The notes under the pieces: model-generated
Database searches by the model: none
The model's input: only the letters and a program-made list of their open reading frames with translations
Told to the model about the DNA's origin: nothing
Translations under genes and position numbers: made by a program
NCBI GenBank assembly: GCA_030690305.1
Contig: JAUYHB010000024.1
Location: 260-64,259 of the forward strand
DNA from: a bacterium
GTDB lineage: Bacteria; Patescibacteriota; Minisyncoccia; Phycocordibacterales; JAGLPS01
Direction of reading: 5' to 3'
DNA length: 64,000 bases
Part shown: piece after piece, positions 1-22,044 of the stretch
Layout of the letters: each line of letters starts with the position of its first letter
Numbering within the stretch: the first letter of the stretch is position 1

Positions 1-47
1 CCCGAGGTAATTCTCAAGGTGTATCGTGAGATTTTTAAATAAACATT

Positions 48-2294
48 ATGTGGATTAATTTCAAGGATTATCAAGAAAATGCTGTTGTCGATCTAAAGCG
101 CGAATCGAACAAACTACTCGACGCTGAAGGAGACAAAGTACTTATATTCAAAGCCCCTACGGGCTCCGGAAAGACGCTGATGGCGGCGGAGTTTTTGAAG
201 CGCCTCATTGATTCACGTATCGACGGCAAGAGATTCTCGTTCGTCTGGATTGCGGTAAACAAGCTCCATGACCAGAGCCGTGAGAAGCTCGCAAAATACT
301 ACGACCACTACGCTGTCGGCTTGAAGTGTTCGCGCTACGAGGATTTGGAGGACAAGAAGATCGCCGAAAACGAGATCCTGTTCCTGAACGGGGCCAGCAT
401 CAACAAGAAGGGCAACATATACGTGCGCGCCAATGAGCGCGACAACAATCTCACATCCGTTATTGCTCGTACAAAGAACGAGGGGCGCATTGTCGTGCTG
501 ATCATCGACGAAAGTCACCATACAGCTAAGAGCGAGAACTCGAAGGATTTGATCCGCGAGATTGGTCCCAAGCTCACACTCGAAGTATCGGCGACGCCTC
601 AACTTAACAACGCGAACCGTATTGTCGAGGTCGAGCTCAAGGCGGTAAAAGACGAGGGTATGATTAAGAAGGAAATCGCGATCAATCCTGGCTTCGAACA
701 CTATGTTCTCGATCCGAAAAAGAGCGATAAGACCGCAGATGAACTCGTGCTCGAGAGTGCTCTCAAGAAACGTGCGGAGCTTCAGAAAAAATACGAGGCC
801 CAGGGCTCCGGCGTGAATCCTCTCCTGCTGATTCAGATACCGGATGCGAAAGCTGGTGTTGCGGATAAGAAGGACGAGGTCGTAGCGATGCTTTCCAAGT
901 ATGGCATTACCACAAAGAACGGCCGTCTCGCGATCTATCTCTCTGAGAAGGATAACAAGATCAACCTCGCTAACATTGAGAAGAACGAGAACGAGGTGCA
1001 AGTTATGATTTTCAAACAGGCCATCGCGCTTGGATGGGACTGCCCGCGTGCGGCAATACTCGTATTGTTCCGTCAGTGGCGCGAGGAGAATATGACGTTT
1101 TCTATACAAACACTGGGTCGTATCATGCGCATGCCAGAGCTCAAGCACTATGAGGATCAGGATTTGAACATCGGCTATGTGTTTACGAGTTTGCCGGACA
1201 TCGAAGTCGCCGAGGACATATCGCGTGACTACATCACTGTGTATGAAGGCAAGCGCCGGCCGGACTATAAGTCCATCGACCTCGAATCATGGCACTCAAA
1301 ACGCTTCCGTGAGGAGACACGACTTTCATCCGATTTCGTCCCAGTATTTCTCGAAGCCGCAATCAAACTCAGCACAAAAAAGCGGATTTCAACAAAGCAC
1401 AGTATTGTAGATACAAAACTGGTCGCAAGCGGCAGAATAATTGATGTCGATAAAGTCGCAAAGAACTTAGATAAAGAAGGGACACTCGATATACCCAAGA
1501 ACGAGGTTGAGTTACAGAATGCTTTCGACCTGTTTGTGCGCAACAATCTCGCGCCTTTTGCCCCAGAGCAACGTTCAATCGCTCGCATCAAGACCTCCCT
1601 CTATAAGCTCTTCGACGTCTATCGCGACGAGGATGAGTGGCCGAAAATACAGGCGATGGTGCTGGCCAAAGAGAACCGTCAGCCGATTATCGATACCATC
1701 AACTTAGCGAAGGAGAAGTATCTAGAAGTTGTTGGGTCCGGCAAGAGAGAGCTGGTGATGAATGACAAACCATGGAATGTACCGTCGATCATAAACTACA
1801 ATCTCGACTTCAAGAAAAAGGATTACAAGAAATCCATCATTCAGCCCTACTACGGTAAGACCCGGGGCAGCCAAAGCTCGTTGCTTGACGGCTATACAGA
1901 GGAGAGTGCAATCGAGCAGGATTTTATCGAACTACTTGAGAATTCAAAGAACAAGGTCGCGTGGTGGTTCCGGAATGGCTCGCAAGATGGCTCCTACTTC
2001 GCGGTCCCTTACATCGAGAATGGACAGAGTCACGCTTTCTACGTTGACTTCATCGTACTTATGAAGGACGGCAGGGTCGGTCTTTTTGACACTAAAGCTG
2101 GCATCACTGCGGAGACAGCTGGATCGCGTGCCGAAGGCCTCGCGGATTACGTTGCCGCACAAAATAAGAAAGGCAAAAAACTGTGGGGTGGCATTGTTGT
2201 CTATGACAAGAAAAGCTGGAGGTATCACCCGGGTAAGGGATACTCATTCGACCAAAAGAACTTAAAAGGGTGGGAATTTCTCGACTTTTCCTAA
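48..2294 (+). CDS. SF2 helicase fused to a C-terminal PD-(D/E)xK nuclease, type III restriction Res-subunit-like
   Basis: Walker A 'KAPTGSGKT', motif II 'IIDESHH', motif III 'SATP', motif VI 'QTLGRIMR'. C-terminal 'YVDFIVLMKDGRVGLFDTKAG' fits the D...(D/E)xK nuclease pattern. In-frame TAA at 36-38 fixes the start at 48. GC3-rich codon usage unlike neighbouring genes. Confidence 0.7.
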   Translation: MWINFKDYQENAVVDLKRESNKLLDAEGDKVLIFKAPTGSGKTLMAAEFLKRLIDSRIDGKRFSFVWIAVNKLHDQSREKLAKYYDHYAVGLKCSRYEDLEDKKIAENEILFLNGASINKKGNIYVRANERDNNLTSVIARTKNEGRIVVLIIDESHHTAKSENSKDLIREIGPKLTLEVSATPQLNNANRIVEVELKAVKDEGMIKKEIAINPGFEHYVLDPKKSDKTADELVLESALKKRAELQKKYEAQGSGVNPLLLIQIPDAKAGVADKKDEVVAMLSKYGITTKNGRLAIYLSEKDNKINLANIEKNENEVQVMIFKQAIALGWDCPRAAILVLFRQWREENMTFSIQTLGRIMRMPELKHYEDQDLNIGYVFTSLPDIEVAEDISRDYITVYEGKRRPDYKSIDLESWHSKRFREETRLSSDFVPVFLEAAIKLSTKKRISTKHSIVDTKLVASGRIIDVDKVAKNLDKEGTLDIPKNEVELQNAFDLFVRNNLAPFAPEQRSIARIKTSLYKLFDVYRDEDEWPKIQAMVLAKENRQPIIDTINLAKEKYLEVVGSGKRELVMNDKPWNVPSIINYNLDFKKKDYKKSIIQPYYGKTRGSQSSLLDGYTEESAIEQDFIELLENSKNKVAWWFRNGSQDGSYFAVPYIENGQSHAFYVDFIVLMKDGRVGLFDTKAGITAETAGSRAEGLADYVAAQNKKGKKLWGGIVVYDKKSWRYHPGKGYSFDQKNLKGWEFLDFS

Positions 2295-2341
2295 TGAATG
2301 AGGGATGCCTTGTACCACGATCTATGTACTAAAAAAGTAAA

Positions 2342-3184
2342 ATGAAATCACGGGGGAAACATGGCACTGCCACTCAATTTAAAGGGCGCACAAAACAGAC
2401 AACCTCTCCGAAGTTCCGTGAGCGGAACCTCGATAATTTCAAACTGTTGGTTGCTTACCCCGCTTTTCAGGAGGAGGTGTGTAAAATCCAGGCGGAACTC
2501 GAAATCAAAGCCGGTGGTTTTTCCACAACCAAAGAAGCTGAGGAGTGGAATAAACGAGTCATTAAAAAGACAGACATTGTATGGAAACACTATAGTGAGC
2601 TCGTAGAAAAAATAAAAACCGATTCAAAAAACAATGGGATTGGTTACCGAATGATGCAACGCCAGCTCGAAATGTTGTACTCTGGGCTTCCCTTCAGTGG
2701 GTTAGAGAGTTATGCGAGCTATCTTATCGGGCGATTTAACTTACCCCAACACTATCAAAGCGCTTTGGTTCTCCACCTTCTATATGGGACCATATCGGCT
2801 CCGGTTCACAATTATAAAACAGAAGTGCCCTCACCGTTGCGGTCCAGGTCACAACCGAGCGGGTTTTCGGAAGTTAGAGCCACTATCTACACACGCCTAA
2901 CAAAAGACGAGCAGAGAGAGTTAATCGCATGGATCGAAAGGATCACAAATGAAAGGACACTTCCTAAATACGAGCCACTTGTCAACATTGACCGTGATCT
3001 AAAAATAAAAGAAGCATACGAGGCATATAAAGAAAATCGCACCGGTGAGCGTGGCACGATAGCCGACCTCGCCGAGGAGTATTTAGGGGATAGGAAGAAA
3101 GCTAACCAAATAAACGCCATTTTACGAGATCTCAGTAAAATTCAAAAAAGCCGATTTGAAAAAGTGAGAAAAAAGCGGTCATAG
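2342..3184 (+). CDS. hypothetical protein, 280 aa, no recognisable motif; partner gene of the helicase-nuclease
   Basis: Long ORF 47 nt downstream of the helicase on the same strand. No catalytic motifs recognised by eye. Confidence 0.5.
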   Translation: MKSRGKHGTATQFKGRTKQTTSPKFRERNLDNFKLLVAYPAFQEEVCKIQAELEIKAGGFSTTKEAEEWNKRVIKKTDIVWKHYSELVEKIKTDSKNNGIGYRMMQRQLEMLYSGLPFSGLESYASYLIGRFNLPQHYQSALVLHLLYGTISAPVHNYKTEVPSPLRSRSQPSGFSEVRATIYTRLTKDEQRELIAWIERITNERTLPKYEPLVNIDRDLKIKEAYEAYKENRTGERGTIADLAEEYLGDRKKANQINAILRDLSKIQKSRFEKVRKKRS

Positions 3185-3220
3185 TTTCTCACTCATTTTT
3201 GACGGGCACCGGACAATATA

Positions 3221-3296
3221 GTCGCAACCAAAAAGTTGCGACACTTTTGTTCACGGGGGCCGAAATCTGCTCGTACACCCCCGTGGCGAGCAGATT
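3221..3296. promoter_or_regulatory. cluster of perfect inverted repeats upstream of the recombinase gene (candidate recombination or regulatory site)
   Basis: gtcgcaac-N6-gttgcgac (3221-3242); cacggggg...cccccgtg (3252-3286); aatctgctcg...cgagcagatt (3264-3296). The last two are nested. Confidence 0.4.
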
Positions 3297-3484
3297 TTGT
3301 ATGATTTCCCCACAGTCCAAAACAGATAAAGAAAGTACCGCTCTCTCTTTTGACGATTTCAAAAAGTCGTTAGGGCCGAGGGCGGCTAAGTACACCGACG
3401 CACAGATCGAGGTGATGCGGCGTATTTGTGATGGCATTGCAGATGCCTGTTTTAATACTTGGCTTCAAGATAGAAAAGCGCATA

Positions 3485-5212
3485 ATGATGTTATACAACA
3501 TGAATCGTCAAACGCTTAGAGCAACAAAAAACTGCGTTGGCCAATGTCGTGTAAGCTCTCAGAAACAACTGCAGGAGGGTGATAGTTTAGATGTCCAAGA
3601 AGCCAGTATTCGCAGATACGCCGAAGTGAAAGGCTGGAACATTGTTCCTAATAACAATGTTTGGAAGACAGCTATCTCTGGGCGAAAAACGGAGCGCGAC
3701 GACTTTGAGGAAATACTGGCCTACATAAAATCTCACCCGGGCACTGTTGACTACTACGTCTTCCGTTCCATCGATCGCGCAACCCGAGCAGGTAGCGGCG
3801 AGTTACAACGCATGAAAATGGAACTCGCTAAGTGTGGCGTGCAGATGGTAGACACTTACGGCATCATTCAACCATCAGTAAATACACTTTCTGATCTTGA
3901 CTTCGAATACGCATGGAGCAGGTTTTCACCGAGCGAGGTAACAGAGGGTGTCTTTGCTACCACCGCCAATCAAGAAGTCACGACGATCCTCACTCGAATG
4001 ATTGGCCAGTCAATCCGTAATACCCAAAAAGGATACCGCACCCGCCGTCCAACTGACGGGTATCTTAATCAGAAAGTATTTGATGAGTTCGGTAAAAAGA
4101 AGTACATCCAAGTACCAGACCCAAAGCGTGCTAAGTTCCGCATCGATATGTTTGAGTTGCGAGCCCAAGGACTAAGTGATGAGGGGTGTGTGAGGCGGAT
4201 CAATGCAAGCGGCTATCGATCGCCAATCTACAACAAATGGAATGACGCTCACGACAAAATAATCGGGAGACGGGGCGGTAAACCGATGACTATCAAACAA
4301 TTTCAACGCGATATTCAAAACACCATTTACGCAGGGGTACTGTGCGAGAAGTGGACATATTACAAGCCAGTTCGGGCACAATACCCGGGACTGGTGAGTA
4401 TCGAGCTGTGGAACCGTGCCAACCGAGGCAAGATCGCAATTATGGAAGCTGCCGACGGTTCTCTCGAGATCGTTAAGGGTAATCGGTCAGCAACAAGCGG
4501 AACGAGATTAAAAAACAACCCTCTCTTTTCATACAAATTTATTTCCTGTCCGCACTGTGGTAAGCCAATGCTCGGGAGCTCACCACGAGGCAAGATGGGA
4601 AAGCCGCACCCAACTTACCACTGCGCACGAAAGCACAAGTACTTCGGCGTGCCGAAACAAGTATTTGAGGATGCTATAAAAAAGTATATTCGTAGCTTGA
4701 AGTTCAACCCTGACTTGTTAGTAGGACTTGAGGCAACGTTTATGGACAAATTCCGTAAACGTGAGCAAGAGATCGTTCGAGCTTCAGGGCACATCCACCA
4801 GAGCATCGCAGACCTTGAGAGTGAACAGGCCATGAAGCTAGAAGCATACACAGCGAGTAAGAGCGCAGTCATACGGGATATGCTTGAAAAGGAGATCGAA
4901 GGCCTAGAGAAGCAAATCAAGTCTGCCGGTAAGGAGCGCCTCAAAATACAAATAACTCGAGATGACATCAAGTCATTCATGCGGGAGGCAAAAATGATTA
5001 TGGAACACCCAGCACAAATACTCCTAAACCAAAAGGATATAAGGGTTCAAAGGGAATTATTCGGACTGGTATTTGAAACTATGCCGACCTACGTCGAAAT
5101 ACTTAGTGGAACACCTAAATTATCCCTAGCTTTCAGGCTTTCTTCGGACTTTGTGCCCGATAAAAACCAACTGGTGACCCCACGGGGAATCGAACCCCGA
5201 TTACTGCCTTGA
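3485..5212 (+). CDS. large serine recombinase (resolvase/invertase catalytic domain, recombinase domain and zinc ribbon)
   Basis: 'CRVSSQKQ...DSLDVQEASIRRY' with catalytic Ser; 'YVFRSIDRATRAG' (DRLxR-like); C-terminal 'CPHCGKPM...YHCARK' zinc ribbon. The exact start is uncertain (ORF opens at 3428). The last 13 codons are antisense to tRNA-Glu. Confidence 0.85.
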   Translation: MMLYNMNRQTLRATKNCVGQCRVSSQKQLQEGDSLDVQEASIRRYAEVKGWNIVPNNNVWKTAISGRKTERDDFEEILAYIKSHPGTVDYYVFRSIDRATRAGSGELQRMKMELAKCGVQMVDTYGIIQPSVNTLSDLDFEYAWSRFSPSEVTEGVFATTANQEVTTILTRMIGQSIRNTQKGYRTRRPTDGYLNQKVFDEFGKKKYIQVPDPKRAKFRIDMFELRAQGLSDEGCVRRINASGYRSPIYNKWNDAHDKIIGRRGGKPMTIKQFQRDIQNTIYAGVLCEKWTYYKPVRAQYPGLVSIELWNRANRGKIAIMEAADGSLEIVKGNRSATSGTRLKNNPLFSYKFISCPHCGKPMLGSSPRGKMGKPHPTYHCARKHKYFGVPKQVFEDAIKKYIRSLKFNPDLLVGLEATFMDKFRKREQEIVRASGHIHQSIADLESEQAMKLEAYTASKSAVIRDMLEKEIEGLEKQIKSAGKERLKIQITRDDIKSFMREAKMIMEHPAQILLNQKDIRVQRELFGLVFETMPTYVEILSGTPKLSLAFRLSSDFVPDKNQLVTPRGIEPRLLP

Positions 5213-5247
5213 GAAGGCAATGTCCTAACCGTTAGACGATAGGGCCG
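5172..5247 (-). tRNA. tRNA-Glu (anticodon CTC)
   Basis: Minus-strand sequence GGCCCTATCGTCTAACGGTTAGGACATTGCCTTCTCAAGGCAGTAATCGGGGTTCGATTCCCCGTGGGGTCACCA. Cloverleaf with T-stem CGGGG/CCCCG, loop TTCTCAA, Glu-type D-loop and encoded CCA. Confidence 0.85.
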
Positions 5248-5315
5248 TTAATACGGATAAGACTATAGGAAAATCAACCTTAAAACAACCACTATCCGTG
5301 TGCCCCTCTAGACTT

Positions 5316-5350
5316 TGTTGACTTTTTTATAAATTATGACATAATTAGCG
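5316..5350 (+). promoter_or_regulatory. sigma-70-like promoter (ttgact-N17-ataatt) for the small ORF at 5400
   Basis: 'ttgacttttttataaattatgacataatt', followed by an 'aaaggag' SD 7 nt before the ATG. Confidence 0.4.
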
Positions 5351-5399
5351 TCAGATAAATGGACTCGGCTAATTTCACAAAAAGAAAGGAGTACTTTGT

Positions 5400-5630
5400 A
5401 TGATTACTGTTAAAAGACAGGGGGAAATTGCTCTTATAGTGTTGAAAGAGATCCTTCGCAACAGAGGCATTAAGCCTGATACCGAGGAGATCAGGAAACA
5501 GGCGAAAGAGGCAGTGGAAAAATTAAATAAAAGAGGTGCCAACCTCTCTATCCCGGAAGCAACCGAATTTTACCTCACCCTCTGTGATGATCTGGTTAAA
5601 GAGATGAAAGAAGGCCTTTCTAAAAAATGA
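5400..5630 (+). CDS. hypothetical small protein (76 aa)
   Basis: Promoter, SD 'aaaggag' and a downstream terminator hairpin. Confidence 0.5.
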   Translation: MITVKRQGEIALIVLKEILRNRGIKPDTEEIRKQAKEAVEKLNKRGANLSIPEATEFYLTLCDDLVKEMKEGLSKK

Positions 5631-5644
5631 GACCTCGAAAAATA

Positions 5645-5680
5645 AGCCCTATGCGTTCTGCATAGGGCTTTCTTTTTAAC
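5645..5680. terminator. bidirectional rho-independent terminator between the small ORF and murF
   Basis: Hairpin agccctatgc-gttctg-catagggct followed by ttctttttaa. Confidence 0.6.
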
Positions 5681-6977
5681 GTTTTCTCCACTCCTCATCC
5701 TGTCTCACAAGAAGTTTTTCTTTTTGGTCGGGGTTGGCCATGATGGCTTCCACTACCCTTTCCATCCGCATGGATTGTGAACCCTTAACGAGAACGATGT
5801 CTCCCGGTTCAATAATGCTTTTTATATATTCCCCCGCTTGAATAGAATCTTCAAAATGAGCCAGTTTTCGCTTCCCCATTTTTTTCTTGAGCGCCCCCGT
5901 TTCAATGAAGTGCGAGCGCATACCCACCGTAATAAGCAGGTCCGCCACTTCGGCGGAGTATTTGCCCGCATTTCTGTGTTCTTCAATCGAGTATTTTCCC
6001 AATTCCATCATGTCTCCCAAAACTGCGATTTTTCTTCCGGAAATATCAAGGCGGGCAAGAGTCGCCAAAGCTTCATGCACGGCAACGGGAGAAGAGTTGT
6101 ACGTATCGTCAATAATAACGGTATCCGCCATTCCCGAAACGATGTGCATTCTTCCCGGAGGAAATTGTCCCGAAGAGACAGCCTGCGCGGATTTAAGAAT
6201 CGGCAAGCCTTGCGAGATTCCCACCGCAATCGCGGCAAGCACGGGATAGATATGCTGACGGCCCAAGACACCGGGAACACGGATGGGAATGCTTACTCCC
6301 CTATGGTCGACTTTAAACGTCATGCCGACTGGGATTTTTTCTTTTCCTTCTTTTTCATATATCGGTTCGTCATGAGCCCCCAACACCACGTTGCCGTCCG
6401 CAAAACCGTATGGAAGCGTGCTTCCTGCAAAAGAATGCCTCAATGAAAGAGCATGTTTATCATCTTCGCTGTACACCAAAACGCCGTCTCCTTTAAGCGC
6501 GCGCACCAGATGGCCTTTTTCTTTCGTTACATCTTCGGGAGAATCAAAAAACTCGACATGAACGGGCACGTCGCTGAAACGCGTCAGGACGACGATATCG
6601 GGATGAAGCCAATGTGATATTTTTCTTATGTCGCCCGGCCTGTCGGCGCCGACTTCAAGCACAAGCCATTTGGGATAATGGCTGGGAAACAGAATAAGCG
6701 CGAGCCCCGATATGAGATTTTTTCCCCACGTGAGCGGGTTTCGCCAGCCGTTCTCAACACCGATAATCGTCAACGGAACGCCGATTTCGCTATTGAAACT
6801 TTTTGCGCTTTTTCGAACAAAAAATGCGCCGGATAAAACGTTGTAGACGGCGTCTTTAGTCGAGGTTTTCCCCACGCTTCCCGTAACGGCAATTATCTTC
6901 GGCTTATATTTGAGAATGATGAGACGGGACTCAAGCGTAAGAAAGAATACTATGATTTTTTTGAAAATGGAAAGCAT
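5676..6977 (-). CDS. murF: UDP-N-acetylmuramoyl-tripeptide--D-alanyl-D-alanine ligase (MurF)
   Basis: 'KIIAVTGSVGKTSTK' P-loop, 'IIDDTYNSSP' and the Mur ligase C-terminal domain. Confidence 0.8.
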   Translation of the reverse strand: MLSIFKKIIVFFLTLESRLIILKYKPKIIAVTGSVGKTSTKDAVYNVLSGAFFVRKSAKSFNSEIGVPLTIIGVENGWRNPLTWGKNLISGLALILFPSHYPKWLVLEVGADRPGDIRKISHWLHPDIVVLTRFSDVPVHVEFFDSPEDVTKEKGHLVRALKGDGVLVYSEDDKHALSLRHSFAGSTLPYGFADGNVVLGAHDEPIYEKEGKEKIPVGMTFKVDHRGVSIPIRVPGVLGRQHIYPVLAAIAVGISQGLPILKSAQAVSSGQFPPGRMHIVSGMADTVIIDDTYNSSPVAVHEALATLARLDISGRKIAVLGDMMELGKYSIEEHRNAGKYSAEVADLLITVGMRSHFIETGALKKKMGKRKLAHFEDSIQAGEYIKSIIEPGDIVLVKGSQSMRMERVVEAIMANPDQKEKLLVRQDEEWRKR

Positions 6978-6982
6978 CGGTT

Positions 6983-8689
6983 TTAGCGGTCAAATGGCAC
7001 CTCATAATAATTTATCAGAAATTTCGTTATATCGATAAACGGGTGCGTCAGTGTTTCAGAAGCGTATCGTACTCCTTTCGGGTCCATTGTAAAGAGGAAA
7101 ACGAGAAATTCGGGGTCATAGGCGGGAAAGTAGCCGAAAAACGAGTGGAGGTATTTCCCTTCTTGATACCCCCCTCCTCCGGTTCCGACAACCTGCGCCG
7201 TACCCGTTTTTGCCGCGACACTATAGTGGGGCAATTTGACGGTACCACCCAAAAGGGCTTCGTCGACGACACGGACGAGCATCCGCGTAATTTCTTCCGA
7301 TGTTTCCTGTTTCAAGACGCGCTCTCCGCGGTCAATGGCGATTGTTTTGGAAAGTCCGTTTTTATAGTTTATTTTTTTTACGAGATGCGGGTTAATCAGA
7401 AGACCCCCGTTTCCGAGAGCCGAAAGGGCTCTGACGGTGGCTATGGGCGTAAAGGCGATTCCCTGTCCGTAGGCGGCGGTGGCAAGCTCGATGTCGCGTC
7501 CGCTGTCAAGGTTGTCGATGAGACCGTACGTTTCATTGGGAAGGTCGATGCCGGTTTCGTCCCCGACTTTGTACGCTTTCATATAATTTACAAATGCTTC
7601 TTTGCCCATTTTAAACATGGCGAAAGCGGCACCCGTGTTGAGAGACTGATTGAGCACCTCTTGCATATCGACAATCCCTCTTCCCTTTCCGTCAAAGTTT
7701 GAAATGCGCGCATTGTTGAGGATAAGGTAGCCTTTGTCGTCGTATGTCGTACTTGCGGTGATAGCACCCGTATCAAGAGCCGCGGCAACCGTGAGAGGTT
7801 TTATGATGGAACCCATTTCGTACACGTTCTCAACAAGCGGGTTTGAAAAGACGTGCGGGTCTTCTTCGTTTTGAAAGGTATTGAGATTAAATGTCGGGTA
7901 CGCTCCCATAGCATAGATTTCACCGGTTTTCGGATTGATAATAATCCCCCCCACTTCATCCGAATTCCACGTTTCATCGATTTTCTTGAGTTCCCGTTCC
8001 AAAAACGACTGCACCGTCGGTTCGATGGTCGCGACGATGTTTCCTTCGTGCTTCGCTTCACCTGCTATGTTTTCTTTAAGGTTTGAAAAAATTTCTGCGA
8101 AGAAATTGATGTACAATCCACCGCTTTCGCGCGCGAGCGTGTCTTCATAATACCGTTCAAGACCGTAACGGCCGGCAAGTGTATCGTCTTTGTATCCCAA
8201 AAATCCGATAAGGTGGGAAGCGAGACTTTCGGCGGGATAAAATCTCCATTTTTCCGTATAAATATTTACGCCGGAAATTTTAAGGGCTTCGATTTTTTTT
8301 GCCGTGGTTTCGTCAACGCGTTTGGCGATTTCTTCGTACGGGTCTTCTTTTTTCGCGGCTTTCGCGAGAAAAGCGTCACGGTCAAGAGCAATGGCTGAAG
8401 AAATTTGGACGTATGCGGACTGCGCGTCGGCAAGGATGCTCGGGTTTATGGCAACCGTAAAACCAGAACGAACAAATGCCATTGGTTCGGGGCCACCGTC
8501 CTTTGTTTCAAAATAAATGGTTCCTCTGTTGAAAAGGTTTACGTCCTGACGGACATATTGCTTGTCAGCCTTAAGGCGGTACTCTTCACCCGAAACCACC
8601 TGCACAAAATAGAGCCTCGAAAGAAGCAACAACGAAAAAAGCAAAAAGATGACGGAGAGAAATCTCAAACGACCGGGAAATGCCTTCAT
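6983..8689 (-). CDS. ftsI: penicillin-binding protein transpeptidase (FtsI/PBP3-like)
   Basis: N-terminal TM, SxxK 'GSIIKP', 'KTGTA'; position in the dcw cluster. Confidence 0.8.
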   Translation of the reverse strand: MKAFPGRLRFLSVIFLLFSLLLLSRLYFVQVVSGEEYRLKADKQYVRQDVNLFNRGTIYFETKDGGPEPMAFVRSGFTVAINPSILADAQSAYVQISSAIALDRDAFLAKAAKKEDPYEEIAKRVDETTAKKIEALKISGVNIYTEKWRFYPAESLASHLIGFLGYKDDTLAGRYGLERYYEDTLARESGGLYINFFAEIFSNLKENIAGEAKHEGNIVATIEPTVQSFLERELKKIDETWNSDEVGGIIINPKTGEIYAMGAYPTFNLNTFQNEEDPHVFSNPLVENVYEMGSIIKPLTVAAALDTGAITASTTYDDKGYLILNNARISNFDGKGRGIVDMQEVLNQSLNTGAAFAMFKMGKEAFVNYMKAYKVGDETGIDLPNETYGLIDNLDSGRDIELATAAYGQGIAFTPIATVRALSALGNGGLLINPHLVKKINYKNGLSKTIAIDRGERVLKQETSEEITRMLVRVVDEALLGGTVKLPHYSVAAKTGTAQVVGTGGGGYQEGKYLHSFFGYFPAYDPEFLVFLFTMDPKGVRYASETLTHPFIDITKFLINYYEVPFDR

Positions 8690-8695
8690 GAAGGC

Positions 8696-9013
8696 TTATG
8701 GCAAAACGTTAACCGATAGTCCTTTGCCGAGCTCCGCGCGCTCGATGAACTGGGTGTCGTTTACTTGTTTATAGCCTTGAGAATAGGCAAAATCCAGACT
8801 AATTGAGTTTTTCTGGGAAATATAGGAACTTTCCATTTCGGACAGCCGGGCCTGCAATGCGCTTATGTTTCCGGCCATTTTTTCCCTGTGTACGACATTA
8901 AGAACCGTGTTATTCACGAGAACCAAATAGGCGCCCCAGGAAAAAACCACCGAGGCCAAAAGTATCAAAAATATCTTTTTATCGTTGTAAATGTAAGAAA
9001 TTGTTTGTGTCAT
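8696..9013 (-). CDS. ftsL: cell division protein FtsL-like (small bitopic membrane protein)
   Basis: 105 aa with a single TM and coiled coil, between rsmH and ftsI. Confidence 0.55.
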   Translation of the reverse strand: MTQTISYIYNDKKIFLILLASVVFSWGAYLVLVNNTVLNVVHREKMAGNISALQARLSEMESSYISQKNSISLDFAYSQGYKQVNDTQFIERAELGKGLSVNVLP

Positions 9014-9906
9014 ATTGTTTTTTCAATGATTCGAAGCTTGGCGCTTCTGGCACGGGGATTGTCCTTTACTTCCTTAAAATCCGCCGTGATGACTTTTTTA
9101 TTGACTAACGAAGCCGTCTCTTCTTTTTCTCTTTCCCGAAAAAAAGTCTTTACCGTTCTGTCTTCGCCGCTGTGAAAAGATATGACTCCCATTCGCCCTT
9201 TGTCGGCAAGCCGTGCAAAACCTTTTGTTAGCCCTTCTTTCAATGCGCCGACTTCATCATTAACCGCCATTCGGAGCGCCTGAAAAGTTTTTGTGGCGGG
9301 ATGAATGCGGCGGGTTGCATACCATGACGGAGTGGCTTTCTTAATGACATCGACAAGTTCGGCGGTTGTTCCGATGGGTTTCTTGTTTCTCTGCTCCACG
9401 ATTGCCGAAGCGATGCGTCGTCCGAAACTTTCTTCTCCGTACTCGTACAGAAGCCATTCGAGGTCCTCTTTGCTCCATCCGTTTATTATTGAAAACGCGG
9501 TAGTGGTCTCGGGAGTGATTTCTTTTTCAAAGGTCATCAAAAGCGGTTCGTCTTTCTGAAAAGAAAATCCCCGACCGCTTACTTCCAGTTGTTCGGAATT
9601 AAGACCGAGGTCAAAGAGTATCGAGTGCGCTTCTTTTATGCCGGCTTCGTCAAGAACCGTATCAAGATTCCTGAAATTCGCCTGTTTTAAAATCACGCGA
9701 CACTTCGCTGTCCCAAGACTTTTTTTTGCTTCCTCAAGTCTGTCGGCGTCTCTGTCGATTCCGACATATGTCCCTTTGGAACCCAGGAGTGCCGCGACTG
9801 AGGCACCGTGCCCTCCGTTCCCTACCGTTGCATCGAGAAAGACGCTTCCTTCTTTGGGAAGAAGTCCTGCGACAACTTCTTGTAAAAGAACACTGACGTG
9901 GGACAT
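9010..9906 (-). CDS. rsmH: 16S rRNA (cytosine1402-N4)-methyltransferase RsmH/MraW
   Basis: 'VLLQEVV..L....GSVFLDATVGNGGHGASV'. Confidence 0.9.
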   Translation of the reverse strand: MSHVSVLLQEVVAGLLPKEGSVFLDATVGNGGHGASVAALLGSKGTYVGIDRDADRLEEAKKSLGTAKCRVILKQANFRNLDTVLDEAGIKEAHSILFDLGLNSEQLEVSGRGFSFQKDEPLLMTFEKEITPETTTAFSIINGWSKEDLEWLLYEYGEESFGRRIASAIVEQRNKKPIGTTAELVDVIKKATPSWYATRRIHPATKTFQALRMAVNDEVGALKEGLTKGFARLADKGRMGVISFHSGEDRTVKTFFREREKEETASLVNKKVITADFKEVKDNPRARSAKLRIIEKTI

Positions 9907-9910
9907 AGGA

Positions 9911-10345
9911 CTAAAAGGCTCCTATTTCTCCCAATTTCTCGGCGAGAAGATCGGCCTGCTTCTCGATCCGTTTCTTGTATTCCGTCCATCGTTTCTCGTC
10001 CCAGATTTCTATCCTGTTGTGAACGCCAGCAAACACTACCTTGCCCGTCAGCTGAGCGAACTCTCTCAAGAAATCCGGAATGAGAATCCTGCCGATAGAA
10101 TCGACACCCGCCTCCACCGCACCGGCGAGCATGAAGCGATTGAAGCCTCTTGCGTCCGCCTGCCCCATCGCGAGTGCTCCGAGCTTTTCGGAAATTGTTT
10201 TCCACTCACCGATAGGATACAGAAAGAGACAATTATCGAGTCCGTGGGTGATAACGACCGTTTTGCCTACTTCCTTTCGAAATTTCGAAGGAAGGGAAAC
10301 GCGGCTCTTGTCATCAATCGTGTGTGTGTATTCTCCAATTAACAT
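9911..10345 (-). CDS. mraZ: transcriptional regulator MraZ
   Basis: 'MLIGEYTHTIDDKSRVSLPSKFRK' with duplicated MraZ domain. Confidence 0.9.
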   Translation of the reverse strand: MLIGEYTHTIDDKSRVSLPSKFRKEVGKTVVITHGLDNCLFLYPIGEWKTISEKLGALAMGQADARGFNRFMLAGAVEAGVDSIGRILIPDFLREFAQLTGKVVFAGVHNRIEIWDEKRWTEYKKRIEKQADLLAEKLGEIGAF

Positions 10346-10512
10346 TTTTCCACTTTATCCCACGTGCCTACATTATATAACACACTCTCCCACCCTACTA
10401 TGTTTCTTATCCACACAATTCACTAAGTTATTGATTAAATCTTCTTTATGTTGTATAATTAGGGTTAGGTAGAAATAAGGCTCTTTTTAAAGTCACAACA
10501 AGGAGGTTTTGT

Positions 10513-10719
10513 ATGAGGGGAAGAAACAGCGATTCACAAAATGTGTGCGCACGGTTTGAGGCCAACGCACGGACATTCGGAAGAGGAGCATGTTCCCGCT
10601 CTTCCCGAGCACATGAACCGGTTTATCTTAGGAAGGAGGAACGGCCCCACGGCCAGGAAATCGTCAAAATAGTCACAGGCAGTCCTGTGACAACCCTTTT
10701 TCAGACAGGAGGCAGATAA
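10513..10719 (+). CDS. hypothetical small protein (68 aa)
   Basis: Near-consensus -10 'tgtataat' at about 10452, strong SD 'aaggagg' 7 nt before the ATG, terminator downstream. No homology recognised. Confidence 0.4.
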   Translation: MRGRNSDSQNVCARFEANARTFGRGACSRSSRAHEPVYLRKEERPHGQEIVKIVTGSPVTTLFQTGGR

Positions 10720-10736
10720 CCGTAGCAGAAATTTCA

Positions 10737-10775
10737 AAAGCCCAAGCGACACACGCTTGGGCTTTTCTTTTCAAA
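10737..10775. terminator. rho-independent terminator
   Basis: Hairpin aagcccaagcg-acacac-gcttgggctt followed by ttcttttc. Confidence 0.55.
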
Positions 10776-10785
10776 TAAAATTAAA

Positions 10786-10794
10786 TGTGGTATA
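10786..10794 (+). promoter_or_regulatory. extended -10 element (tggtataat)
   Basis: TGnTATAAT match, followed by an 'aaggagga' SD and the ATG at 10851. Confidence 0.4.
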
Positions 10795-10850
10795 ATGATG
10801 TTCAGATAAAAAGACCTTTTTAAAACGATCCCTAACCTTAAGGAGGACAT

Positions 10851-11132
10851 ATGGAACGCCAAATCAGTCAGTGGGATTTTGTATCTCTCCGACAGTCCTT
10901 CAAAACAAGTGAAGGGATTGTTCCGGAAAATACAAAAGCGCGGGTGCTCGAATTGTACGGAAAGAAGCGGTGCAAGGTGTTGTTTTTTTCGTCACGTTTT
11001 TACAAAGACGTGGTCCCACAAGAGATTCTTGCATTCGAACATTCCCACGTAGAATTTACACGTCGGATGCTTTCGCTGGAAAGACCGCCTGTCCCAATGT
11101 TTCATAACATCCCCAACATCTGTTACGCCTGA
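10851..11132 (+). CDS. hypothetical protein (93 aa)
   Basis: Extended -10, strong SD and terminator. No recognisable domain. Confidence 0.55.
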   Translation: MERQISQWDFVSLRQSFKTSEGIVPENTKARVLELYGKKRCKVLFFSSRFYKDVVPQEILAFEHSHVEFTRRMLSLERPPVPMFHNIPNICYA

Positions 11133-11146
11133 ACAAAAACATAAAA

Positions 11147-11178
11147 AACGCCTCGTTTCTTGAGGCGTTTTTTCTTTT
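11147..11178. terminator. bidirectional rho-independent terminator (shared with lysS)
   Basis: Hairpin aacgcctcg-tttctt-gaggcgtt followed by ttttctttt. Confidence 0.6.
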
Positions 11179-11181
11179 TAT

Positions 11182-12636
11182 TTAATCTTTCGGTCTCATT
11201 AGAGGAAAGATTTGAGATTCCCGAATGCTTTCACCCGACAAGAAACTGAAAAGTCTTTCTGAAAGACCGAAACCGAAAGTCGGCGGCATTCCATATTCCA
11301 TCGCCTCCACATATTCAAAATCGGCCATATGCGCCTCATTATCACCGGCGTCACGGAGTTTCTGCTGATTTTCGAAACGTTCCCGCTGGTCGATAGGGTC
11401 ATTCAGTTCATTAAACGCCTTTCCCACTTCGCTTCCGGCTAAAATAATTTGGAAACGGTCAACGACACTCGGGTCTTTAACGGATTTTTTCGCAAGAGGT
11501 TCAAGATATATCGGAAACCCGGTGAGAATAACAGGTCCTTTTATGGTCTTCCTGATTTTTTTCCAAAGAAGGTCAATGCCCCGCCCTATATCAATATTTT
11601 CTTCATATTTTATTTTTTCCTTATCCAGAAGACCGCACACAACTTTTCTATCGGCCTTTCTTGGATCAAAACCATATTGTTCCTGCATGAGCGCATTGAA
11701 ATCCTGCCAAATCCATTCATCTCCAAGGTCAATATCAAATTCGCCTATTTTGAATTTGAGCGTATTGAATGTTTCTTTTGCAACCTGCTTATACAGTTCA
11801 ATAACCATAGGAATGCCCTTGCGTGCGTCCTGGTATGCTTCGTAAAATTCAAAATGCGTATAATCTTGGGCATGTTCATACGACATTCCTTCGTTTCTAA
11901 ACACCCTCCCGATTTCAAATATTTTGGGAATACCGCCGATAATCAATTTTTTGTGCCACAACTCAGGCGAAATACGCAGATACACGTCTATATCCAGTGC
12001 GTTGTGGTGAGTAACAAAAGGTCGTGCCTCGGCACCTCCCGTTTTGGTTTCTAAAATAGGAGTTTCAACTTCGATAAAACCGCGTTTAAGCATAAAAGAA
12101 CGGACAGCGTTCCAAAATACCGAGCGTTTTTTTATGATTTCGGTCGTTTTCTGATTAAGTAAAATGTCGAGATATCGTTTTCGGTACCGCCCCTCTTCAT
12201 CTTTGATACCAAACCACTCATCAGGAATTTGATTTAAGCTCTTTGAAAGCAGTCTCCATGATTTTCCCGATAACGAATTGACTCCCCTCTTGGTGGTGAA
12301 CGCTCCTCCGGTAATTTCCACAAAATCGCCGGTATTGATGGTTTCTACAAATAACTTGAATTGTTCTTCGCCAATATCGTCTTTTTTTACCAATGCTTGC
12401 ACGCGGGCAGAACCGTCAAAGAGGTCAATAAAAATAATTCCCCCTTGGTCCCTAAACGACATAATGCGTCCGGCAAGAGTTACCTGTTCTTGCGAAGAAA
12501 AAAGCGTACTAAAAACTTCCAGAAAATTGGCATTTTCATGCGTCCGAAAAGATTCAGCGGGATGAGGGTCAATCCCGTGTTCTTTTAAAATTTCTATCTT
12601 TTTCAGCCTTTCGGACCGAGTTTCGTCAGTAGACAT
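11182..12636 (-). CDS. lysS: lysyl-tRNA synthetase, class II
   Basis: Class II motifs 'FRTHENANFLEV', 'RVFRNEGMSYEH', 'GGAEARPF'. Start placed at 'MSTDETR', 7 nt after a 'tgatataat' -10, which suggests a leaderless mRNA. Confidence 0.9.
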   Translation of the reverse strand: MSTDETRSERLKKIEILKEHGIDPHPAESFRTHENANFLEVFSTLFSSQEQVTLAGRIMSFRDQGGIIFIDLFDGSARVQALVKKDDIGEEQFKLFVETINTGDFVEITGGAFTTKRGVNSLSGKSWRLLSKSLNQIPDEWFGIKDEEGRYRKRYLDILLNQKTTEIIKKRSVFWNAVRSFMLKRGFIEVETPILETKTGGAEARPFVTHHNALDIDVYLRISPELWHKKLIIGGIPKIFEIGRVFRNEGMSYEHAQDYTHFEFYEAYQDARKGIPMVIELYKQVAKETFNTLKFKIGEFDIDLGDEWIWQDFNALMQEQYGFDPRKADRKVVCGLLDKEKIKYEENIDIGRGIDLLWKKIRKTIKGPVILTGFPIYLEPLAKKSVKDPSVVDRFQIILAGSEVGKAFNELNDPIDQRERFENQQKLRDAGDNEAHMADFEYVEAMEYGMPPTFGFGLSERLFSFLSGESIRESQIFPLMRPKD

Positions 12637-12697
12637 GGGCTCTATTATATCAATTTTTCTTTTTTTCTTCCCGCTTTCCCCAGGCCGTTTGAGTAAG

Positions 12698-12847
12698 AAC
12701 TCACTTTCCAAAAATCTTACGGGACCTCTCCCCCCAGTTGGAGCGAGCAACCCCTTTTTCAGAGACTAGCGAGTGCGACGGCACGAGCTCGAGGAATTTT
12801 CTAGTAAGAAAATATCCGTGCTCTGAAGAAGGGATTGTGAACGATTT
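12698..12847. repeat. copy R1 of a dispersed intergenic repeat family (about 150 bp) containing the palindrome gGAATTTTCTAGTAAGAAAATATCc
   Basis: About 85% identical over about 150 bp to the reverse complement of 58020-58165. Partial matches at 46156-46250, 20934-21025 and 36781-36870. Confidence 0.7.
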
Positions 12848-13315
12848 TTATTTGATTTTCAGAATTTTGTATCGAACGGCGCCTTCGGGAGTTTCAAAGG
12901 AAAAAGTTTCTCCTTTCTTTTTTCCTATAATCGCTTTGCCGAACGGAGATTTCATGGATATTTTCGCGGCGGAAATGTCTGCTTCTTCCGAGCCGACAAT
13001 TGTATACACAAGTTCCCCCTTTCCCCCTTCGCGGGAAACCGTCACAACAGAGCCTACCGAAACTACGTCACCGTGGGCGCCTGAAACAATGTGCGCGGTT
13101 TTAATGAGAGACTCAAGCCGCGTGATTCGATTCTCGGTGTTTGCCTGCATTTCACGCGCTTCATGGTACTCGGCGTTTTCAGACAGGTCTCCGAGAGATT
13201 TTGCGTATTCAAGACTTTCGGCTATTTCTTTGCGTCTGGTCTTTTTGAGGTATTCAAGTTCTTTCTTGAATTCGTCATATTTCTCCTGCGTAAGATATTC
13301 TTTTTCTTCTTTCAT
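12848..13315 (-). CDS. greA: transcription elongation factor GreA
   Basis: 'YLTQEKYDEFKKELEYL...GDLSENAEY' and the FKBP-like C-terminal domain. Confidence 0.9.
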   Translation of the reverse strand: MKEEKEYLTQEKYDEFKKELEYLKKTRRKEIAESLEYAKSLGDLSENAEYHEAREMQANTENRITRLESLIKTAHIVSGAHGDVVSVGSVVTVSREGGKGELVYTIVGSEEADISAAKISMKSPFGKAIIGKKKGETFSFETPEGAVRYKILKIK

Positions 13316-13355
13316 ATTTGTTGGAAATTCATTCTATCGTGCAACAGGGTCAAAG

Positions 13356-15068
13356 TCAATTTGCGGGTTTTGCCTCAAAATATTCTGGTGTATGCGCGTT
13401 CATCCAGTCAAGAAGCTGGCGCATAACATAGGCTCCTCCAATAAGGTTCGTAACAGGCCCGCGCTCCATAACAACCGCAAAAGCGTATCGGGGAACGTCA
13501 AACGGAAAGAAACCGACAATCCACGAGTTCACATATTGCTTTGCCACGCCGAGTTCGGCGGTTCCCGTTTTTGCGGCAACTTTGACAAACGGGACGGAGA
13601 GGCCCTGGGCCGTTCCTTCCGTCACAGCCATTCGCATTCCCTCTTTGACAATAGTGAAATATTCGGAGGGGATATTAAGCGAGGTGGATTCTATTTTTCC
13701 TTCCGACACTATTTTGGGCCGTAAGAGCATTCCTTCGTTCGCAATCGCGGCAATCGCCCGAACAATCTGGATGGGCGTTACCTGAACACTGTATTGGCCG
13801 ATAGCCGTGTTATACGTATCCCCGACTCTCCACGCCTCTCCGTTAAAAGTTTCCTCCTTCCATTGCGGTGTCGGAATCAGTCCCGTTTCTTCATGTGGAA
13901 GGTCAATGCCCGTTTCCTCTCCGAAACCGAATTTTTTCATATACTCGTCGATTCTCTGTATGCCGAGGCCTTGCTGGTCTTCAAACCCCCCTCCGATTTC
14001 GTAAAAATATACGTCCGAAGAAACCGCGAGCGCGTGTCTCATGTCAACCCAGCCATGCGCTTTCCAGTCTTTAAAAACCGAACTTTGTCCCGGTGCGTAC
14101 GGGTTTGGAATGGAAATCGAACCGGTGGAAAGAATTTGTTTTTCCGGAGAAATGATTTGTTCGTTAAGAGCGGCAAGGGCAAGAAACGGTTTTACAATCG
14201 AGCCCGGAGTGTACAGCCCCGCAACGGCACGATTGAGAAAAGGTGTGTATGGATTGTTTACATAGTTTCTAATCTGTTCCGAATCGCCTCCGGTTAAGAC
14301 CGCCGAGCTGTATTCCGGGTAACTTGCAAGTGCAAGCATTTCTCCCGTCTGCACATCCATGATGAGGCCCGAGCCCGCTCGGAAACCGACATTGCCCGCC
14401 GTCTCCCTGATAATTTCATACAGCTTGCTTTGTATTGCCGAATCAACCGACAAAGAAAGGCTTCTTCCGCGCACAGGGGGCTCGATGACACTTTCGGACT
14501 GAACCGCGCCAAGAGCGTCGGTTTCGGTAATTTTCAAGCCGTTTGCTCCTCCAAGTAAAACATCATAGGCTCGTTCGACACCCTCCCGCCCATCGAATGT
14601 TTCCTGATAGTAAAAACCGTCGCTGTCTTTTGACGGATATTTAAGGTAGCCGAGAAGATGAGAAAGTCCGGGGAGAGACGTGTATTCGCGTAAAGAAAAA
14701 TCAGGGTTGTTCGGATGGATGCTGTTCCACGCCAATTCCACCTTGTTCCGGTCATAGACAACTCCCCGCTCGGAAAAGATAAGCGTGTGCCGTAGACGGT
14801 TGTTTTCGCTCTTTTGCGCATACGTTTTTCCCTCAACAATTTGCAAAGAAAATAACCGGAATACGAATACCAATCCGACAAAAAGAAAGAATACGCCGAG
14901 ATAGAGCGGCACTGATGAAGAAATCGGTTTCTCCAGTCTCCCTTCAAACTGGTTTCGGTCAAACTTCGGCAGGTTGCTTGAGTCAAGAAAAATATCTTCC
15001 GGGGCGATGTCCGCATATCTGTCACGCGGCCGCAACGGCAATTTTAGAAAATTCCGCAATCTTTTCAT
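13356..15068 (-). CDS. mrdA: peptidoglycan D,D-transpeptidase PBP2 (MrdA)
   Basis: TM, 'GSIVKP' SxxK, 'KTGTAE'. Adjacent to mreBCD. Confidence 0.8.
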   Translation of the reverse strand: MKRLRNFLKLPLRPRDRYADIAPEDIFLDSSNLPKFDRNQFEGRLEKPISSSVPLYLGVFFLFVGLVFVFRLFSLQIVEGKTYAQKSENNRLRHTLIFSERGVVYDRNKVELAWNSIHPNNPDFSLREYTSLPGLSHLLGYLKYPSKDSDGFYYQETFDGREGVERAYDVLLGGANGLKITETDALGAVQSESVIEPPVRGRSLSLSVDSAIQSKLYEIIRETAGNVGFRAGSGLIMDVQTGEMLALASYPEYSSAVLTGGDSEQIRNYVNNPYTPFLNRAVAGLYTPGSIVKPFLALAALNEQIISPEKQILSTGSISIPNPYAPGQSSVFKDWKAHGWVDMRHALAVSSDVYFYEIGGGFEDQQGLGIQRIDEYMKKFGFGEETGIDLPHEETGLIPTPQWKEETFNGEAWRVGDTYNTAIGQYSVQVTPIQIVRAIAAIANEGMLLRPKIVSEGKIESTSLNIPSEYFTIVKEGMRMAVTEGTAQGLSVPFVKVAAKTGTAELGVAKQYVNSWIVGFFPFDVPRYAFAVVMERGPVTNLIGGAYVMRQLLDWMNAHTPEYFEAKPAN

Positions 15069-15089
15069 GTTTTTTCATTATACACTCCC

Positions 15090-15350
15090 CTATACCCGCA
15101 CATATTTCTTGGCAAAAAACGAAAGCATGAGGAGGGCGTACGCAAGCAGTATCCCGAAGGGAAAACGGGGAAAAAAGAAAAAAGGAACCGCGTGCAAAGC
15201 ATCAAAAACAAAACCGAATAAAATAATTTCGTAATAGGAAGAAAAACGGACAAGCGCCGAAAGAGCAAGAAGAAGCGTTACCCACCACGGAAAAAGCAGA
15301 GATGAAAAAAGAATGATGAAAACAAAAATTCTAAAAACAATGTTACTCAT
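15090..15350 (-). CDS. mreD: small polytopic membrane protein, MreD-like
   Basis: 86 aa, hydrophobic, directly downstream of mreC. Confidence 0.45.
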   Translation of the reverse strand: MSNIVFRIFVFIILFSSLLFPWWVTLLLALSALVRFSSYYEIILFGFVFDALHAVPFFFFPRFPFGILLAYALLMLSFFAKKYVRV

Positions 15351-22040: not shown

Positions 22041-22044
22041 ATTT

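Follow-up and report, generated by a model that had tools for sequence, protein, structure and literature searches.

The locus considered here, positions 1-5246 of a 64,000-nucleotide (nt) stretch (hereafter the window) of contig JAUYHB010000024.1 from a Paceibacteria-like Patescibacteria genome, runs from the tail of a methyltransferase gene (mod) through a predicted helicase-nuclease gene (res, ORF1), a second open reading frame (ORF2) and a large serine recombinase gene into tRNA-Glu(CTC). Its closest described counterparts are Type III restriction-modification (R-M) systems and elements that integrate at tRNA or transfer-messenger RNA (tmRNA) genes. In Type III systems such as EcoP15I and EcoP1I, mod is followed by res. 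This order, with a gap of 4-5 nt, is found in the window locus and its relatives; the Mods of the relatives are PF01555 β-class methyltransferases with their motifs split around a central variable region, and Res here would combine an N-terminal ResIII superfamily 2 (SF2) ATPase with a C-terminal PD-(D/E)xK motif, as in the known systems. Unlike them, Res here belongs to a very large, tightly conserved (~70% identity) Patescibacteria-centred branch, and a small HTH_17 gene precedes mod in two of the relatives (L002 and L093). Res is also shorter: ~745 amino acids (aa) in this family, as opposed to ~970 aa in EcoP15I.

The recombinase likewise has well-studied relatives. Integrases such as phiC31, Bxb1, A118, CcrB and XisF share with it the Resolvase, Recombinase, zinc-ribbon and coiled-coil regions and the location at the element edge, by the att junction; their targets are protein-coding or intergenic, whereas the target here appears to be the T-arm of a tRNA or tmRNA gene, with the integrase ORF ending inside it. 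SSV-type archaeal integrases, which are tyrosine recombinases, carry attP within the int gene, and integration cuts that gene into two parts; there, as would be the case here, the att site overlaps the integrase coding sequence so that recombination alters the int ORF, except that here the last few codons alone would be exchanged. Islander-type tyrosine-integrase islands insert at the 3' part of tRNA and tmRNA, or t(m)RNA, genes (the sublocation classes of Williams, 2002): the displaced segment is restored by the element, int lies beside the rebuilt tRNA, and a hotspot arises where one tRNA is used repeatedly. The island described here resembles them in all these respects, yet it has a serine recombinase, from a family unrelated to the tyrosine integrases, and no long direct repeat marking its other end was recovered. 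Among large serine integrases, t(m)RNA targets have been assigned to only 14 of 297, a usage unreported before that needs experimental proof (Mageeney et al., PMC7192596); a literature search found nothing more specific on t(m)RNA-targeting serine integrases in bacteria of the Candidate Phyla Radiation (CPR).

Set beside these systems, positions 1-5246 are very probably the integrase-proximal end of a mobile integrative island that sits in tRNA-Glu(CTC) and carries a conventional Type III R-M operon, (HTH_17)-mod-res, as cargo. A near-identical copy, L002, puts the size of the island at 11.7 kb or more. So read, the locus is a standard Type III R-M system in an arrangement typical of defence islands rather than a new defence system.

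The junction with tRNA-Glu

That a mobile element adjoins tRNA-Glu, as a preliminary description of the window had proposed, is borne out by L002, in which the same element lies at another tRNA-Glu gene with unrelated flanks. The nucleotide identity between the two copies is 93.1% for res, 94.2% for ORF2 and 93.9% for the recombinase; the L002 copy adjoins tRNA-Glu(TTC), which is followed by tRNA-Ser(CGA), whereas the window copy adjoins tRNA-Glu(CTC) and murF. The sequences hardly differ across the recombinase 3' end and the acceptor/T-arm 3' half of the tRNA, diverge in the anticodon stem-loop and are unrelated past the tRNA 5' end. Since identity is lost inside the tRNA and the flanks have nothing in common, the boundary between element and host within the tRNA is genuine. 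Assemblies branch at the same place: two host-side contigs with identical MurF (L008 and L009) end within the tRNA or right at its 3' terminus, and the T-arm is where an element-side contig of the same sample ends. Contig breaks at the tRNA are what a population-variable insertion is expected to produce.

Where in the tRNA does the exchange occur? An older junction is preserved in L042: a recombinase remnant at the murF-tRNA-Glu(CTC) site retains GTGACCCTACGGGGAATCGAA at its end and loses similarity past it, and the same 21-mer recurs 177 nt farther on, there followed by CCCCG, in the intact tRNA (8719-8739 and 8542-8562). From this we infer a breakpoint at or 3' of the T-loop, in the interval of the window given in Table 1, and the last six codons and the stop of the window recombinase would therefore be host-derived. 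A second decayed recombinase C-terminal fragment follows in tandem in L042 (10245-10511), which indicates repeated insertions at this site. Two further observations concern the tRNA genes themselves. In the acceptor stem of the window tRNA-Glu (5177-5181), a T6-G67 wobble stands where L002, L042 and L079 show a Watson-Crick T-A pair, which would agree with a chimeric tRNA whose 5' part comes from the host and whose 3' part comes from the element. In L002, an extra 22-nt, 91%-identical copy of the tRNA-Glu 5' half (D-arm and acceptor; 11856-11877) is located 114 nt past the tRNA, between tRNA-Glu(TTC) and tRNA-Ser, and may be a relic of an earlier rearrangement.

The alternative that survives best, though we judge it improbable, is that the copies at the CTC and TTC genes arose by inversion between two convergent tRNA-Glu genes and not by two integrations. 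A suitable pair exists in L029, with tRNA-Glu(CTC) after murF and a convergent tRNA-Glu(TTC)-tRNA-Ser(CGA) 4.4 kb apart (murF +36 to +4784); the L002 flank is exactly tRNA-Glu(TTC)-tRNA-Ser(CGA) (11689-12078), and the 3' half with the breakpoint is common to both tRNAs. An inversion is harder to reconcile with two copies that come from different samples and are ~6% different, with the lack of murF or tRNA-Glu(CTC) within the 11.7 kb of L002, and with host backgrounds that nothing links.

Two separate integrations, the reading preferred here, would place one of them at a site that has been used before. A survey of the murF loci of 80 relatives found a co-oriented tRNA-Glu(CTC) 30-360 nt past murF in at least 13 (L013, L015, L020, L021, L023, L029, L030, L031, L033, L042, L054, L079 and L080). 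The genes that come after the tRNA vary by genome: they include Ddl with a glycosyltransferase, a tRNA synthetase, a ParB_N protein, an IS1595 transposase, a Laminin_G protein and serine recombinases, and in L054 a recombinase fragment lies ~1.8 kb beyond tRNA-Glu. On this comparison, tRNA-Glu(CTC) after murF reads as a recurrent insertion hotspot. The survey also bears on the dcw cluster, whose gene order in the window, mraZ-rsmH-ftsL-ftsI-murF, ending at 5676, is as the preliminary description gave it. The cluster had been thought to stop abruptly after murF as a result of the insertion. Because the adjacency of murF and tRNA-Glu(CTC) is native in the relatives, the dcw block natively ends there and the insertion did not truncate it; mraY, murD and ftsW are absent among the six post-tRNA ORFs scanned in five of these relatives and among the twelve larger window ORFs scanned.

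The recombinase frame in tRNA and tmRNA genes

The recombinase matches Resolvase (PF00239; E=2e-13, 50.9 bits against a cut-off of 23.3 bits) and the PHROG 95 integrase (E=1e-40 over aa 6-499), and its catalytic serine is predicted in the context CRVSSQKQ (RVSS motif). Matches to Recombinase (PF07508) and Zn_ribbon_recom (PF13408) fall just below the cut-offs in the correct order, and a coiled-coil region is present. The ATG start given in Table 1 is plausible; GTG 3428 and ATG 3500 are alternatives. The window recombinase was not found in IMG/VR.

The overlap of 41 nt with the tRNA 3' end (5172-5212), which had been noticed at the outset, is confirmed: the last 13 codons and stop of the recombinase are the antisense of the tRNA-Glu 3' half, and the TGA stop lies antisense to the anticodon loop. 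L002, L079 and L042 share the frame in which the tail ...DKNQLVTPRGIEPRLLP* terminates; in the latter two, the same 41-nt overlap of recombinase ORF and tRNA recurs and the ORF ends ...LVTLRGIEPRF(E/K)A*. The L079 enzyme is a complete serine recombinase (Resolvase and Recombinase) 20% identical to that of the window, and the overlap and its frame are kept in recombinases that are 20-42% identical. An island at a different gene, in L003, follows the same pattern. Its recombinase (13228-14964), which shares 24% identity with that of the window, extends 209 nt into the 3' part of a tmRNA gene next to smpB (14756-15143, minus strand), a gene that ARAGORN missed and Rfam RF00023 matched at 108 bits; the overlap includes GGA-ATC-GAA-CCC, read as GIEP in the same frame as at tRNA-Glu. 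Serine-recombinase islands that carry mod-res thus appear also to target tmRNA next to smpB. The other two frames across the antisense tRNA, read from the sequence, stop after ~6 or ~64 nt. Retention of one frame across such wide divergence argues that the overlap of att site and ORF is old and maintained. L003 also contains two 39-nt direct repeats, 90% identical (3369-3407 and 4063-4101), with a T-arm-like GTTCGATTCCCCC motif; they are oriented opposite to the tmRNA and bracket ~700 bp with a small membrane-protein-like ORF.

Might the island be an immobile relic, with the recombinase reading into the tRNA by chance? We consider this unlikely. The frame would have had to be kept by chance at tRNA-Glu in recombinases of 20-42% identity and again, as GIEP, at tmRNA; at the antisense tRNA, the alternative frames would give overlaps of ~6 or ~64 nt; the same element occurs at two different tRNA-Glu genes, and assemblies branch at the tRNA. 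The recombinase gene is, as judged from the comparison with L002, full length and under purifying selection, with 15/13/78 substitutions at the first, second and third codon positions. The one argument for a relic is that no second att copy turned up: neither a second copy of the tRNA 3' segment (at most 3 mismatches) nor a direct repeat in the right orientation occurs in the window, the 11.7 kb of L002 or L003. Because attL and attR of serine integrases share little sequence, the lack of a repeat is uninformative either way.

If the element is mobile, as preferred here, what is known of the family suggests how it would move. The recombinase would insert the element at the T-loop/acceptor region of tRNA-Glu: it would synapse attP with the attB in the tRNA, make staggered double-strand cuts at a central dinucleotide, and religate the ends after subunit rotation. 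The tRNA 3' segment borne by the element would restore the tRNA gene and, at the same time, encode the recombinase C-terminal LVT(P/L)RGIE. A broader model, which we put forward tentatively and with more doubt than conviction, is that a deep clade of large Patescibacteria serine recombinases specifically targets the T-loop/acceptor of tRNA-Glu and tmRNA; that attP lies within the last integrase codons, so that integration and excision swap the C-terminal tail and produce a state-dependent isoform; and that the ORF2 family is a dedicated DNA-binding partner, such as a directionality or late-operon factor.

The comparative evidence does suggest that large serine integrases of CPR bacteria use tRNA-Glu and tmRNA att sites that overlap their own integrase 3' ends. 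If the clade model is true, these would be well-supported natural cases of t(m)RNA targeting, a class of sites described as rare and unproven (PMC7192596). Serine integrases are prized for genome engineering, and a target as conserved as a tRNA would carry over to hosts for which genetic tools are lacking.

The mod-res operon and ORF2

Does the operon contain a mod gene? The first 42 nt of the window are open in frame 1 and encode ...PEVILKVYREIFK*, with a TAA stop 5 nt before the res ATG, and their codons line up one by one with the 3' ends of the PF01555 mod genes in L002, L003 and L004. The relatives compared have Res proteins 97% (L002), 88% (L003), 78% (L004/L005) and 36% (L093) identical to that of the window. 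A PF01555 methyltransferase gene of 551-583 aa ends 4 nt before the res start in L002, L003 and L004/L005; the three Mods scanned, those of L002, L003 and L004, match PADLOC MTase_III (E=5e-78 to 5e-96). In L093, in which Res is similar over its full length (E=5e-124), the order of mod and res is kept and the genes overlap by 11 nt. A Type III methyltransferase gene is thus directly upstream of res in all four relatives examined, and annotated Res homologs on Staphylococcus and Enterococcus plasmids adjoin genes for a "site-specific DNA-methyltransferase". The statement that the window holds no Mod is therefore correct for a complete gene and incorrect for the gene tail, and the first of the alternatives offered with it, which put the R-M partner upstream of position 1, is the one that stands.

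ORF1 had been called Res-like, and database matches agree: ResIII (PF04851; E=6e-20, 72 bits against a cut-off of 22.5 bits) and PADLOC REase_III (E=3e-18). More than 7,000 proteins match this family; the best 120 are all ~745 aa long, 68-97% identical and spread over many Patescibacteria lineages, and several homologs bear the source name "type III restriction enzyme". Across 19 members, PTGSGKT (aa 37-43, Walker A), DESH (154-157), SATP (181-184) and QTxGRIMR (354-361) are invariant, as is a C-terminal D667...D681-T-K683 in a conserved block; the C-terminus also has a local match, below the cut-off, to the restriction-endonuclease family NF046055 (E=4e-6). Substitutions relative to L002 are distributed 28/5/123 over the codon positions, and res is therefore under purifying selection. 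The Res sequence and family profile did not reach solved Type III Res structures and matched only the Walker-A region of Dicer-related helicases; Res would therefore be a divergent, shorter branch with a predicted activity. Taken together, these data identify ORF1 as the probable res of a conventional Type III R-M operon, with a mod gene that the start of the window truncates.

If the system works like the Type III enzymes studied so far, its Mod would add methyl groups to a single strand of a short asymmetric recognition site. Res, in a Mod2Res complex and powered by its SF2 ATPase, would mediate communication between two unmethylated sites in inverse orientation and, through its PD-(D/E)xK domain, cleave the DNA of incoming phages.

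ORF2 is a different matter. Its description as a protein with no recognisable domain holds: it has no significant match in Pfam, PADLOC (none at E<=0.1), NCBIfam, PHROGs or PDB sequences. Only seven close homologs were found in a set of 5.8 billion proteins, against more than 7,000 for Res. A profile search of cluster representatives recovered 285 clusters of ~270-aa proteins, 44 of them at E<1e-30; pattern scans found no relatives among GTDB representatives, IMG/VR or deposited phages, the deep family alignment being too divergent for such a scan. The AlphaFold model (63 sequences; mean predicted local distance difference test, pLDDT, 89; predicted template modelling score, pTM, 0.75) is all-helical with one small hairpin. 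It has no significant global fold match, and its recurring local matches, of ~50 residues, are to helix-turn-helix (HTH) domains: LuxR/DesR, Myb, DeoR/SorC, sigma region 4 and a small-terminase N-domain. The most strongly conserved block, ADLAEEYLG (241-249), precedes a long helix and would fit an HTH, and the model suggests that ORF2 probably carries one at its C-terminus. Kinship with sigma-70, raised by weak matches, was rejected (hhalign probability 0.1%).

Is ORF2 a third component of the R-M cassette, such as a controller or a specificity or anti-restriction accessory? In the window it starts 47 nt after res; because no terminator separates the two and hairpins follow ORF2, it is probably co-transcribed with mod-res, and the apparent mod-res-ORF2 unit ends in conserved hairpins. 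An HTH-like fold would suit a regulator, a homolog adjoins the HTH_17-mod-res cassette in L093, and others lie beside stand-alone PF01555 methyltransferases in L010, L093 and L094. We nevertheless give this possibility little credence. Res homologs overwhelmingly lack ORF2: there is none beside res in L004, and in L003 its position is taken by a 228-aa gene that, considered as a homolog, proved unrelated on comparison. Conversely, homologs in L006, L007 and L011 have no res or mod nearby. In L007, the homolog is followed by a ~115-aa ORF and a serine recombinase, in L011 by a ~114-aa ORF and then a truncated third ORF, and in L006 it adjoins an AAA_15 ATPase and a GemA-like gene. In L010, L093 and L094 it heads an operon of a (ParB-)N6/N4 methyltransferase, a small terminase (PHROG-confirmed in L010; 155-aa ORFs placed by position in L093 and L094), a large terminase and, in some, a serine recombinase. 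Even where it meets mod-res in L093, this methyltransferase-terminase-recombinase operon is divergent from the HTH_17-mod-res cassette, so that the same parts recur in phage-like elements, differently arranged. Neighbours of element type in the relatives include HTH_17, an Ltp lipoprotein and an ImmA/Xre pair.

ORF2 therefore looks like a mobile-element gene rather than an R-M subunit: its family is independent and travels with recombinases and packaging operons. Its most likely predicted role is that of a DNA-binding regulator or accessory of the mobile element. Of the suggestion that mod would lie immediately upstream and ORF2 be a known R-M accessory, the first half is upheld and the second is not, nor is ORF2 a conserved neighbour of res. 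In their position directly upstream of methyltransferase, small- and large-terminase genes, and in the local HTH and sigma-region-4-like matches of the model, ORF2-family proteins recall RinA/ArpU-like regulators of phage late operons; unlike these, they have no sequence or profile similarity to any annotated family, and no terminase genes follow ORF2 in the window. The family, unannotated, confidently foldable and represented by 285 clusters, marks phage-like mobile elements in Patescibacteria. The L093 element (1-16855) combines HTH_17-mod-res, HEPN_AbiU2 and a divergent operon of the ORF2 homolog, a ParB-N6/N4 methyltransferase, a 155-aa ORF, a large terminase and a 441-aa serine recombinase; it is possibly a satellite or minimal prophage.

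Several points weigh against the interpretation of the locus as a mobile island with Type III cargo. (i) The body of mod lies outside the window, and the 65,772-nt source contig adds at most ~1.8 kb in total. (ii) Res, without sequence reach to solved Type III Res structures, has a predicted activity only, and it is ~220 aa shorter than the EcoP15I protein. (iii) ORF2 co-occurs with mod-res a second time in L093, looks co-transcribed with it in the window and may thus have a functional link to the R-M system. (iv) Neither the window nor L002 or L003 yielded the left end of the element or a second att site, and the element extends beyond the window and L002; searchable collections contained no longer copy, a metagenome scan with a 40-nt probe returned the L002 contig only, and of the protein look-ups for upstream DNA, the exact ORF1 had no match and ORF2 gave a 3-kb contig only. 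(v) No phage structural genes were seen in the 11.7 kb of L002, with which a prophage and a non-phage island are both compatible.

The weakest alternative, a Mod-less two-gene defence system in which the Res-like helicase-nuclease acts with ORF2 and without methylation, as the preliminary description had envisaged, has in its favour the lack of a complete mod in the window and an ORF2 that follows res without a terminator; it is refuted by the mod tail at the window start and by the mod genes directly upstream of res in the relatives, is at odds with an ORF2 family far smaller than that of Res and missing beside res in L003 and L004, and has been removed as a false lead.

Layout of the locus and neighbouring features

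The four genes on which the preliminary description was built, ORF1, ORF2, the recombinase and tRNA-Glu(CTC), were all found where it had placed them; Table 1 lists them with the other features of the locus.

Table 1. Features of the island end and its junction with tRNA-Glu(CTC); positions are those of the window.
Feature	Position	Strand	Basis
3' end of mod (last 13 codons and TAA)	1-42	+	Frame-1 ORF cut by the window edge
res (ORF1), full length, 748 aa	48-2294	+	PF04851, PADLOC REase_III, motifs
ORF2, 280 aa	2342-3184	+	Member of an unannotated ~270-aa family
Conserved non-coding spacer with two hairpins	3185-3308	+	Identity to L002, folding energy
Large serine recombinase, 575 aa	3485-5212	+	Resolvase, PHROG 95
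tRNA-Glu(CTC), intact, CCA encoded; attR-type junction	5172-5246	-	ARAGORN, Rfam RF00005 (59 bits)
Interval with the inferred recombination breakpoint (antisense, CCA end through T-loop)	5172-5194	.	L042 remnant, assembly breaks

The spacer that follows ORF2 has no substitutions relative to L002 over 124 nt, whereas the flanking genes differ by ~6%. It is predicted to fold strongly (minimum free energy -46.9 kcal/mol, z=-5.3) into hairpins at 3221-3242 and 3262-3298, the first of which coincides with a terminator-like match; a promoter-like site lies at 3459-3486, ahead of the recombinase. The hairpins probably mark the end of the mod-res-ORF2 transcription unit, and might act as terminators in tandem or as an element with a regulatory or protein-binding role. 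Two ORFs also fit this region: an 82-aa antisense ORF (3189-3437, minus strand), called by gene finders in L001 and L002, and a plus-strand ORF of 72-106 aa (3199/3301-3519). Neither has homologs or a clear codon-position signal, and they are probably not genes. The plus-strand ORF was also compared with the ~115-aa ORFs of L007 and L011 as a candidate homolog; the alignment (22-23%, forced) was unconvincing and the substitution pattern uninformative.

On the host side, a 76-aa ORF without a family match (5400-5630) lies between tRNA-Glu and murF and is also present in L008 and L009; in the same region, a good promoter-like site was predicted at 5318-5345 and a strong terminator, bidirectional, at 5644-5670. 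Farther along, the window encodes two full-length MreB paralogs (16124-17188 and 21027-22127; E ~1e-135 each) and two class B penicillin-binding proteins (PBPs; 6983-8689 and 13356-15068), so that pairs of MreB and PBP lie within 15 kb in a small Patescibacteria genome.

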